Part shown: piece after piece, positions 11,846 through 27,076 of the stretch
Layout of the letters: every line of letters begins with the position of its first letter
Numbering within the stretch: the first letter of the stretch is position 1
Notes under the pieces: model-generated
What the model saw: the letters and a program-made list of their open reading frames with translations, nothing else
Databases searched by the model: none
Told to the model about the DNA's origin: nothing
Position numbers and translations under genes: made by a program
Assembly (NCBI GenBank): GCA_963719425.1
Contig: OY970382.1
Location: 201,888 to 242,861, forward strand
Direction of reading: 5' to 3'
Length of the DNA stretch: 40,974 bases
From: an uncultured bacterium
Lineage (GTDB): Bacteria; Patescibacteriota; Minisyncoccia; UBA6257; 2-01-FULL-56-20

Positions 11846-12397
11846 CTATCTGGCAAAAAAGAGAGCGCATACGGCAGCGAGGAAAACAAGTAACTCGACG
11901 ATCGCATACGGATGGCATCTGAGGTAGATGTTCCGTATCCAATCCTTATCTCCATATTGTCGTGAGAGGCTGCGAACCTCTTCGGGGCTCCAAGAATAAA
12001 CTGCTTTTTGCGGCAATCCGTTTCTGGACGTGTCGTAGTGATAGAAAAATGCATAGTGATTTTTGGAAAATGGATATAACCACTGGATGCCCCACCCTAT
12101 GCCGATTGAGTCGTGCACGAAATGAAGGAGTGTTGTTATGCCGAACAAGAGCGCGTAAGGCAAATCAAAGAAAGAAATGACCGTCATTCCAAACAGCACA
12201 TAGGGAATGGGGTAATGAAGAAGGAGCCTGTGCTCGTGAGCGAGGGCGGTGTATCGTTTTTGAACCGCAAAAAGGAAATCGATATCAGGCAAAAGAGAAA
12301 ATAGGATTCCCGCTCCGACGAGAACCGGGCCTCCGACTCCGAAAAGGTGGTGTATGAAAATCGCAGAGAGAATTCCAATTCCAATATCAAGCAACAT
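11846..12397 (-). CDS. Membrane-bound metal-dependent hydrolase-like protein (YdjM-like)
   Basis: LPDID, H and LLHFVHD, GIQWLYPF motifs in a hydrophobic protein. Confidence 0.6.
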   Translation of the reverse strand: MLLDIGIGILSAIFIHHLFGVGGPVLVGAGILFSLLPDIDFLFAVQKRYTALAHEHRLLLHYPIPYVLFGMTVISFFDLPYALLFGITTLLHFVHDSIGIGWGIQWLYPFSKNHYAFFYHYDTSRNGLPQKAVYSWSPEEVRSLSRQYGDKDWIRNIYLRCHPYAIVELLVFLAAVCALFFAR

Positions 12398-12418
12398 AAT
12401 CCTAATATAGTTTGAGAA

Positions 12419-12433
12419 GAATGGGGTCCATTC
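12419..12433 (-). terminator. Short hairpin just after the outer tRNA 3' half
   Basis: GAATGG-ACC-CCATTC followed by a weak T-rich run on the minus strand. Confidence 0.35.
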
Positions 12434-12434
12434 G

Positions 12435-12472
12435 CGCCCCCACCAGGATTCGAACCTGGGACCATCTCCTTA
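12435..12472 (-). pseudogene. Outer tRNA-Lys 3' half (positions ~36-73)
   Basis: 12436-12472 is identical over 37 nt to 12524-12560 of the intact tRNA; discriminator position is G instead of A. Confidence 0.85.
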
Positions 12473-12489
12473 CTATTGGCAGCGAATTG

Positions 12490-12626
12490 AAAATGAAAAC
12501 ATAGTTTTTCTTTCGGGCAGAGTGCCCCCACCAGGATTCGAACCTGGGACCATCTCCTTAAAAGGGAGCTGCTCTGCCAACTGAGCTATAGGGGCACTCT
12601 GCCCAAAATAGCTATGTTTTCATTTT
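12490..12626. repeat. Inverted repeats flanking the intact tRNA-Lys
   Basis: AAAATGAAAACATAG (12490-12504) / CTATGTTTTCATTTT (12612-12626) and GGGCAGAGT (12515-12523) / ACTCTGCCC (12596-12604). Confidence 0.9.
12523..12595 (-). tRNA. tRNA-Lys(UUU)
   Basis: Full cloverleaf: GCCCCTA/TGGGGGC acceptor, loop CT-TTT-AA, GGTTCGAATCC T-arm; CCA not encoded. Confidence 0.93.
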
Positions 12627-12661
12627 TAATGAGCGAACCAATGGGCGAATTCTTATTCGCA

Positions 12662-12697
12662 AAAGGGAGTCAGCTCTCACCACTGAGCTATAGGGGC
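12662..12697 (-). pseudogene. Outer tRNA-Lys 5' half (positions 1-35)
   Basis: GCCCCTATAGCTCAGTGGTGAGAGCTGACTCCCTTT; same acceptor and D stem as the intact copy, different D loop; ends in the anticodon. Confidence 0.85.
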
Positions 12698-12707
12698 TTT
12701 CGTTGTC

Positions 12708-12736
12708 ATTGTAGGGGAAATATGGGATGGTTTCAA
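12708..12736 (-). promoter_or_regulatory. Sigma70 promoter of the tRNA-Lys locus
   Basis: Minus strand TTGAAA-17-TACAAT; predicted start a few nt before the outer 5' half. Confidence 0.7.
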
Positions 12737-13947: not shown

Positions 13948-14409
13948 ATGGCAACCAGACACTTAATTCGGACCGTGATTCTCCAAACTCTCTACGAGTG
14001 GGATTTTTATGGCCGAAAAAAGGATGTGACGGAGATTTTGGAGCGGAACCTCGCTGAATTCGCCCCCGGCATTGATGAGCCGGAGTTCGCGTGGAAAATT
14101 TTGAAGGGCGTCGTGGAGCATACAAAACACATTGACAATGTGATTACGAAAGCCGCTCCCGAGTGGCCGCTGGACAGGATCGCCATTATTGACCGCAACA
14201 TCCTGCGCATCGGCCTTTACGAGCTTTTATACGCTGATCCCGAGGAGGTGCCGCCGAAGGTGGCCATTAACGAGGCGATTGAACTTGCAAAGAACTACGG
14301 CGGGCCGAACGCTGCGCGGTTCGTGAACGGCGTTTTGGGAACGATCTACCGCGAAGTGGGGGAGCGGAAAACAGCGGGCGAAGCACACGTCGTGCAAAAA
14401 AATAAATGA
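13948..14409 (+). CDS. nusB: Transcription antitermination factor NusB
   Basis: [38 protein letters not shown]. Confidence 0.95.
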
Positions 14410-15092
14410 ACACCGACGCATTACAGAAAAAACTCGGAATTTCATTCAAGAACGAAGATTTACTCACAGAAGCCCTGACCCATCGTTCGTACTTGAATGA
14501 GTTCCCGAGGTGGCGGTTGCCGCACAACGAGCGCTTGGAATATCTTGGCGATGCGGTTTTGGAATTGATCGTTTCCGAAGAACTTTTCGCAAAATTTCCC
14601 GATTATCCCGAAGGCAAGCTCACGGTGCTCCGCGCGGCGCTTGTGAACTATCAAATCTTGGCGCGCGTGGCGGAGTCCTTCAGCCTTGAGAATTTTATCT
14701 TGATGTCGCGCGGCGAGCGGAAGGATACCGGCAAAGCACGCGAGGTCATCCTCGCGAATGCGATTGAGGCCGTGATCGGCGCGATGTATTTGGATCAAGG
14801 GATTGAGAAAGTCTGTGCATTCGTGAAAAAAAACGTTATGAGCAATTTAGAGGATGTGATGAAAACGAGAAGCTACCGAGACGCGAAGAGCGAGCTGCAG
14901 GAATTGGTTCAGGAGAAGTTGCGTGTTACGCCGGCATATCGCGTGATAGAAGAGGCAGGCCCTGCGCACCGGCGCGTGTTCAGAATGGGCGTTTATTTCG
15001 GGGAAAGATTAGTTGCCGAGGGCGTTGGAGCGTCAAAACAGGAAGCAGAACTTGACGCGGCGAAGCACGCGCTCCAAAAACGCCTTCCGTGA
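14406..15092 (+). CDS. rnc: Ribonuclease III
   Basis: [26 protein letters not shown], dsRBD with GPAH and GxSKQEAE. Confidence 0.96.
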
Positions 15093-23855: not shown

Positions 23856-25405
<1,550 letters not shown>

Positions 25406-25436
25406 TAAGTCGATAACGCGCGGTCGCGCGTTAAGG

Positions 25437-26910: not shown

Positions 26911-26991
26911 GCGCGGGTGGCGAAACGGTAAACGCGTGCGTTCGAGGGGCGCATGCCGAAAGGCTTGGAGGTTCGATTCCTCTCCCGCGCA
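26911..26991 (+). tRNA. tRNA-Leu(GAG)
   Basis: GCGCGGG/CCCGCGC acceptor, A73, long variable arm GCC-GAAA-GGC, anticodon loop TC-GAG-GG. Confidence 0.88.
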
Positions 26992-27076
26992 CAAAGACAA
27001 AAAGTATAGATTTTAATTGGGTAAAATAGGTTCGAACCCTGGAGCGAATCTATTTAAATAGGAGTATGATTAAGTC

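Follow-up and report, generated by a model that had tools for sequence, protein, structure and literature searches.

Does a tRNA gene that is interrupted within its anticodon still yield a tRNA from its two halves, or has another gene taken over its role? This question is raised by a locus in a 40,974-nt stretch of DNA from an uncultured patescibacterium (contig OY970382.1, positions 201,888 to 242,861; hereafter the window, numbered from its first nucleotide), in which a complete tRNA-Lys(UUU) gene lies inside an insert that splits a second tRNA-Lys(UUU) gene in its anticodon loop. We refer to this arrangement as the nest, to the split gene as the outer tRNA, to the embedded gene as the inner tRNA, and to the paired leader and trailer of the latter as the stalk. 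Disrupted tRNA genes, whether intron-containing, split or permuted, are central to ideas on tRNA evolution and on the protection and repair of such genomic targets and, group I introns aside, had been an archaeal and eukaryotic story. Here, a bacterial tRNA gene is interrupted at the anticodon by a non-ribozyme insert with a spare tRNA; the arrangement has long been kept, and the RNA structure of the insert is clearly under selection. The insert belongs to no known intron class. If it were true that the outer halves are re-joined, the locus would represent a new bacterial route of RNA splicing. The reading that we consider most likely, with a probability of about 0.5, is more modest: a palindromic insertion broke a tRNA-Lys gene and supplied its replacement, the stalk clamps the inner tRNA, and the outer halves are dead. 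Even under this conservative reading, a gene disruption would have been rescued by its own cargo, and a structure would have become indispensable only through its surroundings, in that the duplicated halves would misfold unless the leader paired with the trailer.

Anatomy of the nest

On the minus strand, from 12697 to 12435, a tRNA-Lys(UUU) 5' half is followed by an insert of 188 or 189 nt (12660 or 12661 to 12473) and then by the matching 3' half. ARAGORN and Rfam report a single tRNA at the locus, the inner tRNA-Lys(UUU) in the middle of the insert (end at 12522 or 12523); since tRNA finders report the inner gene only, such nests are missed. In the order of the minus strand, the parts are as follows.

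12708–12736, minus strand: sigma-70-like promoter TTGAAA-17-TACAAT of the resident (outer) tRNA-Lys, matching 10 of 12 consensus positions
12662–12697, minus strand: outer tRNA-Lys 5' half (36 nt: acceptor 5' strand, D arm, anticodon-stem 5' strand, C32 to U35), from the repeat search, in-silico joining and orthology with locus L013
12645–12660, minus strand: junction hairpin GCGAAT-AAGA-ATTCGC, from the predicted fold
12638–12644, minus strand: basal stalk helix, 5' strand CCATTGG, partner of 12473–12479 (covariation, helix 2)
12628–12637, minus strand: 5' side of the stalk internal loop, TTCGCTCATT, the same in all four nests; its TCGCT recurs in direct orientation on the 3' side
12612–12627, minus strand: long stalk helix, 5' strand AAAAATGAAAACATAG, with 15 perfect bp in the window and 16–17 in relatives
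12596–12611, minus strand: CTATTTT, which pairs with the A-rich part of the 3' loop, then GGGCAGAGT, the 5' strand of a 9-bp extension of the inner acceptor stem (inverted-repeat search, covariation)
12523–12595, minus strand: inner complete tRNA-Lys(UUU), no encoded CCA (ARAGORN; Rfam RF00005, 69.2 bits)
12515–12522, minus strand: acceptor-stem extension, 3' strand CTCTGCCC (inverted-repeat search, covariation, RNAalifold)
12505–12514, minus strand: variable loop GAAAGAAAAA, the sole fast-evolving part of the insert and an internal neutral control (insert alignment)
12490–12504, minus strand: long stalk helix, 3' strand CTATGTTTTCATTTT (inverted-repeat search, covariation)
12480–12489, minus strand: stalk internal loop, 3' side CAATTCGCTG, with the second TCGCT copy (insert alignment)
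12473–12479, minus strand: basal stalk helix, 3' strand CCAATAG, ending in G, the last base of the insert (covariation, helix 2)
12435–12472, minus strand: outer tRNA-Lys 3' half (38 nt), U36 to C72 plus discriminator G (A in the inner copy), 37 nt of it identical to the inner copy

This anatomy of a split tRNA-Lys, an insert, an inner tRNA and repeats had been proposed in a sequence-only reading of the same DNA, and it was borne out by ARAGORN, Rfam, a repeat finder and the predicted fold. The repeat finder returned the 3' halves (12436–12472 and 12524–12560; 37 nt) as 100% identical and the 5' halves (12560–12595 and 12662–12697; 36 nt) as 78% identical, in line with the identical 3' halves and diverged 5' halves described in that reading. 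It also returned two inverted repeats, a 24-nt arm pair (88%), within which the perfect 15 bp lie, and another of 18 nt (94%), which combines the 9-bp arm with the acceptor stem. The predicted fold of the 271-nt sense strand reproduces the nested architecture exactly (-116.8 kcal/mol, z = -7.96), with none of 200 shuffles as good. When the insert was deleted in silico, ARAGORN called a 75-nt tRNA-Lys(ttt) from the outer halves, so that the joined halves do rebuild a tRNA-Lys, as had been claimed; with the inner tRNA masked, it called an intron-containing tRNA with a 189-nt intron. The D loop of the outer 5' half reads AGTGGTGA, also given as AGUGGUGA, and an extra nucleotide at position 26 (TG replacing A) is common to the window and locus L001. 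The outer tRNA starts 10 nt past the -10 box. No internal promoter for the inner tRNA was found in the insert by promoter scan or by eye, and no open reading frame (ORF) of at least 50 aa lies wholly inside it.

The T at 12661 may be read either as U36 or as the first base of the insert, and the 1-nt slide of the junction that follows from it, part of the sequence-only reading, holds for the window. It does not hold for the three related nests described below, where CCCTTT/GCG...G/TAAGGAG (slashes marking the insert boundaries) fixes the junction between U35 and U36. The extra T of the window lies inside a T-run and could be a homopolymer error. At three of the loci used here (L010, L013 and L017, from ERZ25039xxx assemblies), the genes for RNase HII, NusB/RNase III and SMC are split or fused, which suggests long-read indel errors; length differences of one base, the extra T at 12661 among them, call for caution. 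Of the five copies of GCGAA/TTCGC that had been counted around the junctions, four are conserved, as the two arms of the hairpin and as a direct repeat on the two strands of the stalk; the fifth, just 3' of the outer tRNA, is not.

The nest in related genomes

The window lies on an 888-kb contig. A genome scan with the downstream ydjM-like gene identified a second locus, L001, on a complete 899-kb chromosome (OY970175.1), and eight further loci were found through the cluster of the upstream zinc-ribbon gene (zinc ribbon, RNase HII, L32, NusB, RNase III and SMC). Names of homologous proteins place the clade in the Patescibacteria, or candidate phyla radiation (CPR), which are bacteria of ultra-small size. 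Full nests are present in the window, L001, L011 (GCA_009712145.1) and L017 (ERZ25039473), which come from different projects and independent assemblies. L009 carries a half nest, with a tRNA, the 3' stalk strand and an extra 3' half but without the 5' stalk strand and the second 5' half. A plain tRNA-Lys(UUU) is found at L010, L012, L013 and L015/L016. Synteny with ydjM is otherwise lost, and L002–L007 have no tRNA-Lys.

Because four independent assemblies share the architecture and yet differ by compensatory changes, the nest is real and inherited and is not an assembly artefact. Differences in the nest sequence group the window with L001 and L011 with L017. As this grouping agrees with a rough protein tree, vertical descent from a single insertion appears to be the simplest history.

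Plain loci indicate which of the two genes came first. The outer 5' halves of the window and L001 start where the plain tRNA of L013 starts, behind a homologous promoter (upstream alignment); TTGAAA-17-TACAAT itself is kept in L001 and in L013, where it precedes the plain tRNA-Lys. In a second genomic context, the outer 5' half of L017 starts where the tRNAs of L015 (plain) and L009 (half nest) start, behind a different upstream region that is homologous among the three. That the start is the same behind homologous upstream regions in two contexts places the insert within a resident gene; judged from these alignments, the outer tRNA is the original gene, and the insert with its own tRNA came to lie inside it. 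L009 is exactly the product expected of recombination between the two 5' halves. Were the 3' halves to recombine in their turn, a plain gene would result, and this could explain the plain loci that occur amid nests in both contexts.

The stalk evolves as a paired structure

We aligned the four inserts (alignment A3) and scored four helices: the junction hairpin, the basal 7-bp helix, the 16-bp helix and the acceptor extension. Standard pairs occupy 97.2% of the 142 pair cells, and 7 of the 36 stalk pairs show compensatory double changes. In slid controls, in which the partner was moved by 1–3 columns, 0–1 double changes and 40–45% pairing were seen. One pair of the basal helix is found as U-A, U-G and C-G, and 5 of the 16 pairs of the long helix changed in a compensatory manner. 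In the acceptor extension, G-C of the window corresponds to U-A in L011 and L017, and in the same two nests the junction hairpin gains a whole bp (GCGAAT/ATTCGC to GCGGAAT/ATTCYGC). The covariation among relatives that the sequence-only reading had proposed to look for is thus found in both the 15-bp and the 9-bp arm. RNAalifold, run without a supplied structure, arrived at the same stalk, tipped by the inner cloverleaf, and also paired GC/GC and AUU/AAU inside the stalk internal loop.

Fourfold-degenerate sites of neighbouring genes served as a neutral yardstick. Relative to the window, these sites are 76% (L001), 54% (L011) and 46% (L017) identical. The stalk, less one loop, differs from that of the window by only 10% (L001), 13% (L011) and 8% (L017), with P = 3e-4, 4e-13 and 1e-23, respectively. 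The excluded loop, 10–13 nt on the 3' side, is scrambled between the genomes, and there has therefore been time enough for unconstrained positions to change. This pattern of substitution indicates that the stalk is under selection. The inner tRNA is identical in L001 and near-identical in all relatives, and it is most likely the working gene.

State of the outer halves

In a tabulation of stems, the outer tRNA is intact in the window and in L011; once joined, it has intact stems, G18G19, U33 and A58 in both (with the extra nucleotide at position 26 in the window). Elsewhere it is damaged. The outer tRNA of L001 has A1-C72 and A7-C66 mismatches and two broken T-stem pairs, four in total, and a D loop without G18G19; that of L017 has one acceptor pair and one T-stem pair broken; and the leftover 3' half of L009 carries A58G. 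All the changes in the outer halves of these three loci are disruptive and none is compensated, while the stalks of the same genomes keep their pairing through compensated changes, of which L001 has the most. The outer and inner halves share lineage-specific states in L011 and L017. We read the similarity of the outer halves to the inner tRNA as a probable outcome of gene conversion from the strongly constrained inner copy, with occasional decay that goes uncorrected. By this pattern, the outer halves seem to be the remains of a decaying gene and not a second functional tRNA.

The insert is not a recognizable intron or ribozyme

All four nests carry ...CCCUUU/GCG...G/UAAGGAG, and thus the location in the anticodon loop, the U before the insert and the G at its end that are typical of group I introns, as the sequence-only reading had pointed out along with the lack of a visible core. 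Infernal searches with Rfam models, run on the window and L011, bore out that absence: no group I (RF00028), group II or other intron or ribozyme model matched at E<=10, and none of the hammerhead, twister, HDV-like, pistol, hatchet and hairpin ribozymes was among the matches at that threshold. As neither the gathering score nor E<=10 brought up a match to such a model, an identity as a group I intron, a group II intron or a known ribozyme was rejected. A bulge-helix-bulge motif (3-nt bulge, 4-bp helix, 3-nt bulge) was also considered and rejected; inspection of the four sequences and their folds showed that it cannot form between the 5' exon CUUU and the insert 3' end RAURG.

A role for the stalk

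The leader-trailer duplex has a folding energy of -46 to -61 kcal/mol in the four nests (z = -8 to -12). No such duplex surrounds the tRNA-Ala and tRNA-Leu of the window, the tRNA-Arg of L007, the plain tRNA-Lys genes or the tRNA of L009 (z from -1.2 to +1.4). We considered whether stalks might be the normal route by which this organism makes tRNAs, and rejected the idea on the strength of the duplex-free tRNA-Ala and tRNA-Leu of the window and plain tRNA-Lys of the relatives. In a thermodynamic model, the acceptor stem of the inner tRNA forms with a probability of 0.96–0.97 in the native units and of 0.07–0.21 when the trailer is shuffled; in half-collapsed constructs of either kind, the outermost halves pair together instead. 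The model thus suggests that the inner tRNA depends on leader-trailer pairing for its folding once its halves are duplicated and its leader is structured, and this dependence would explain the selection on the stalk without a role for the outer tRNA.

The following course of events would account for these observations. A non-coding palindromic insertion of about 190 bp would have split the resident tRNA-Lys(UUU) between U35 and U36, carrying a complete replacement tRNA-Lys(UUU) at its centre. It would have happened once, in the ancestor of a small clade of Patescibacteria, and have been inherited vertically thereafter. To judge from the position and conservation of the old promoter, the whole unit of about 265 nt is probably transcribed from it. 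In the transcript, the leader and trailer of the inner tRNA would pair over about 45 bp, with interruptions, in the structure that is under selection, and this duplex is predicted to clamp the inner 5' and 3' halves in the right register despite the competing duplicates. A duplex of this length with small symmetric interruptions is of the classic substrate type of RNase III and, by analogy, a likely substrate; a double-strand-specific cut, with RNase III as the candidate enzyme, may free a short precursor. RNase P, 3' trimming and CCA addition, the last because no CCA is encoded, would then finish the inner tRNA. The outer halves would not be re-joined and, as their substitutions suggest, would represent a dead gene that is kept similar by gene conversion and otherwise decays. 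Recombination between the repeated halves would collapse the nest, with L009 as the halfway product and the plain loci perhaps as the end product.

Several observations weigh against this reading. In all nests the outer halves differ by only 11–14% and are far more conserved than fourfold sites, and in the window and L011 they are perfectly intact; selection on them is conceivable in some lineages. The inner tRNA of L011 (L011:2815-2887) has G33 (CGUUUAA) instead of the near-universal U33 and scores 58.6 bits with Rfam, against about 70 in the relatives, whereas its outer halves, if joined, would give the canonical loop CUUUUAA; G33 would be odd in a sole working copy. Direct repeats of 35–37 nt that lie about 100 nt apart have been retained for as long as it took fourfold sites to become half-saturated, and the long retention of such deletion-prone repeats hints at some benefit of the full nest. 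Lastly, the four nests fall into two sub-clades only, so that counts of covariation are small and come from related sequences. Template switching at a DNA quasi-palindrome could mimic compensatory change, and the non-Watson-Crick cells (3 G-U and 3 C-A/A-C) show no strand preference. The conserved bulges, and a stalk that is frozen next to a scrambled loop, nevertheless argue against correction of the palindrome at the DNA level.

Alternative explanations

A genuine nested or split tRNA, cut between U35 and G and between G and U36, with ligation of the outer halves by, for example, an RtcB-type ligase, would yield two tRNA-Lys per transcript; the cuts would be made by an unknown nuclease or a new small ribozyme, and the outer tRNA of L001 would have lost its function only recently. 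The junction is identical in the four nests, with its U before the insert and G at the end, and a conserved hairpin stands exactly there. The outer halves that are intact in the window and L011 and everywhere much more conserved than fourfold sites, the G33 of the L011 inner tRNA as opposed to the canonical CUUUUAA of the joined outer tRNA, and the long-retained unstable repeats would all find an explanation. Against splicing speaks L001, where the outer tRNA acquired four broken pairs, among them A1-C72, and lost G18G19 while the stalk evolved with compensation; L017 and L009 likewise carry uncompensated disruptive changes, the junction of the window differs in length by 1 nt, and no group I core, bulge-helix-bulge motif or known self-cleaving ribozyme was found. 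Moreover, we know of no protein-dependent tRNA splicing in bacteria. We therefore regard splicing as very unlikely, and of the processing route envisaged in the sequence-only reading the cutting of the stalk remains plausible, but not the ligation, against which the disruptive outer changes in L001, L017 and L009 and the lack of a splicing signature speak. It seems unlikely, too, that the insert is a currently mobile, non-autonomous element of the kind of miniature inverted-repeat transposable elements (MITEs), or a recombination cassette, that spreads horizontally with its own tRNA and owes its conservation to recent transfer. A 16–19-bp inverted repeat bounds the tRNA core, flanked by a 5–6-nt direct repeat, TCGCT(N), and this resembles a terminal inverted repeat with a target duplication. 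Nested and plain states both occur in two genomic contexts, the outer halves would serve as homology arms of 35–37 nt, and the relatives show the locus to be prone to insertion, with a LAGLIDADG gene in L012, a serine recombinase in L013 and a repeated tRNA 3' end in L015. However, no second copy of the stalk was seen in the 41-kb window, in about 110 kb of related loci (18 in number) or in genome, metagenome and viral collections as far as scanned. The differences among inserts follow the grouping of species, the variable 3' loop is as diverged as neutral DNA, which argues against recent transfer, and inner and outer halves share variants of the host lineage. The earlier proposal of an insert that brings a compensating tRNA thus fits the origin of the nest, given the outer 5' half at the start of the plain tRNA and the anatomy of inverted and direct repeats; as for its mobile part, no sign of present mobility was seen, with no other copies in the DNA and collections scanned and with insert differences that track the species tree.

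A functionless relic of duplication or integration, in which covariation arises from correction of a DNA palindrome by template switching and has no role in RNA, is distinctly unlikely. Quasi-palindromes are known to be homogenized by template switching, the non-Watson-Crick cells show no preference for the sense strand, and outer halves do decay. Against this, bulges and internal loops are kept, and all 4 nests have the same 10-nt loop; the stalk is 4–6 times more conserved than fourfold sites next to a scrambled loop; the arms lie about 110 nt apart; and fold predictions require the trailer for the inner tRNA once the leader is present. The double integration at the anticodon loop that had been offered as a third option leaves complementary, covarying arms, conserved far above neutral expectation, unaccounted for. 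A duplication that is only decaying, also considered in the sequence-only reading, does not agree with relatives that carry the arrangement and have covarying arms. An assembly artefact, in which a single tRNA was mis-assembled as a nested repeat, had been named there as well. Nothing was found in its favour, and the same nest in three other independent assemblies, with compensatory differences among the four, refutes it for practical purposes.

Two further ideas were rejected. The nest could have been a leader of the rnc operon, involved in RNase III autoregulation; the orientation fits only loci of the L011 type and neither the window nor L001. The leader could have been a decayed 5' tRNA fragment; the match of ATAGCT.ATTTTGGGCAGAG to tRNA positions 6–24 was marginal (26 of 1000 shuffles, uncorrected for four comparisons) and was not used.

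Relation to known systems

Group I introns of bacterial tRNAs, which are common in unnamed and CPR phyla, resemble the insert in their position in the anticodon loop, in the U that precedes them and in their final G. Unlike them, the insert has no catalytic core, and the roughly 115 nt outside the embedded tRNA consist of one hairpin and one duplex; since only these 115 nt remain, there is no plausible space for a group I core. In addition, the outer exons decay in some lineages and the cargo is a tRNA rather than a homing endonuclease. Such introns have been surveyed in bacterial tRNAs with an intron model that the nest insert fails to match. Archaeal tRNA introns with a bulge-helix-bulge include one in tRNA-Trp with a box C/D RNA encoded in it, and Nanoarchaeum has split tRNA genes. 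In common with these, the nest has a functional RNA inside a tRNA intron and a long complementarity that brings tRNA halves together. It differs in its bacterial host, in the absence of a bulge-helix-bulge at the junctions, in its position (35/36 instead of 37/38), in having both halves on one transcript and the same tRNA as the nested RNA, and in outer halves that are probably not ligated.

The intervening sequences of rRNA are cut by RNase III, and they extend a hairpin loop of a structural RNA gene, as does the insert; excision without re-ligation would be the expected fate here too. Bacterial rRNA processing stalks are cut by RNase III as well, according to PMC6582327. The nest shares with these stalks a long leader-trailer duplex around a stable RNA, and conserved complementarity of this kind around a mature RNA, the hallmark of an RNase III stalk, was found. 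By analogy, rRNA stalks and intervening sequences appear to be the functionally closest counterparts, although in the nest the enclosed RNA is a tRNA, the stalk lies inside another tRNA gene, other tRNAs have no stalk, and the RNase III cut is a prediction.

Palindromic elements such as MITEs, Correia elements and the Rickettsia palindromic elements, the last of which insert into RNA and protein genes, share with the insert a small size, the absence of coding sequence, long inverted repeats flanked by a short direct one, a long hairpin on transcription and a location inside a gene. The near-perfect inverted repeat of 15–19 bp and the lack of coding capacity of the insert agree with a MITE; dispersed copies were not present in the window or the 18 loci. 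Unlike such elements, the insert carries a complete functional tRNA, occurs once per sampled region at a fixed site and is apparently inherited vertically. The TCGCT(N) direct repeat lies directly outside the inverted repeat in all nests and could equally be a selected symmetric internal loop; an origin by transposon-like insertion, with a pre-existing hairpin CCATCGG-loop-CCGATGG as the target, is suggestive only. Integrative elements leave att-site duplications in tRNA genes, and the nest resembles these in its perfect repeat of a tRNA 3' part downstream of an intact tRNA; the relatives L013 and L015 host integrations at the locus. The nest is set apart by a gene-free stalk spacer of 49 nt, by the absence of an integrase, by the duplication of the 5' half as well, and by spacers that are complementary and covary.

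A literature search found no published tRNA nested in a tRNA and no tRNA inserts other than group I introns in CPR bacteria. A pattern scan for the hairpin and a tRNA D arm found nothing in viral contigs and, in metagenome contigs, a chance match beside a tRNA-Thr (L008); a scan of viral contigs for the stalk pattern also found nothing. BLAST against phages returned ordinary tRNA-Lys matches only, and exact look-ups of the YdjM and L32 proteins of the window and of spurious ORFs that overlap the nest found none on record.

Neighbouring genes and other insertions at the locus

Two protein-coding genes near the nest in the window bear on its setting.

11846–12397, minus strand: ydjM-like membrane hydrolase gene (PF04307), 38 nt downstream of the nest on the same strand
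14406–15092, plus strand: rnc (RNase III) gene, 1.7 kb from the nest, identified by Pfam Ribonuclease_3 and dsrm on orthologues; context, and not part of the element

No terminator-like site was found in the 38 nt between the nest and ydjM (12398–12435), and the ydjM start codon has an AGGA ribosome-binding site. Possibly, ydjM is co-transcribed from the tRNA promoter, in which case a tRNA-like 3' structure may mark the 5' end of the mRNA. Elsewhere in the window, the 16S rRNA gene (23856–25406) is not followed by a 23S rRNA gene within 15 kb, so the rRNA genes are unlinked, and a tRNA-Leu(GAG) gene (26911–26992) lies 1.5 kb downstream of the 16S gene.

In the relatives, the locus of the nest is a hotspot of insertion (L012, L013 and L015/L016). 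At L012, a free-standing LAGLIDADG_3 homing-endonuclease gene (L012:2103-2965) lies 2 nt past the discriminator of the plain tRNA-Lys(UUU), at the position orthologous to the nest. A large serine recombinase (Resolvase, Recombinase and Zn_ribbon_recom domains) and a 235-aa ORF adjoin the plain tRNA-Lys of L013 (L013:678-2706), and this region looks like an integrated element. At L015 (L015:1346-2846; also L016:1467-2967), the intact tRNA-Lys is followed 1.4 kb downstream by 10 nt that repeat its 3' end (GGTGGGGGCA); the tRNA and this copy bracket a 341-aa ORF with no Pfam match, in the manner of an att-like duplication. Finally, the SMC gene of L010 (L010:5342-6315) contains an intein with a LAGLIDADG domain (Pfam Intein_splicing and LAGLIDADG_3).

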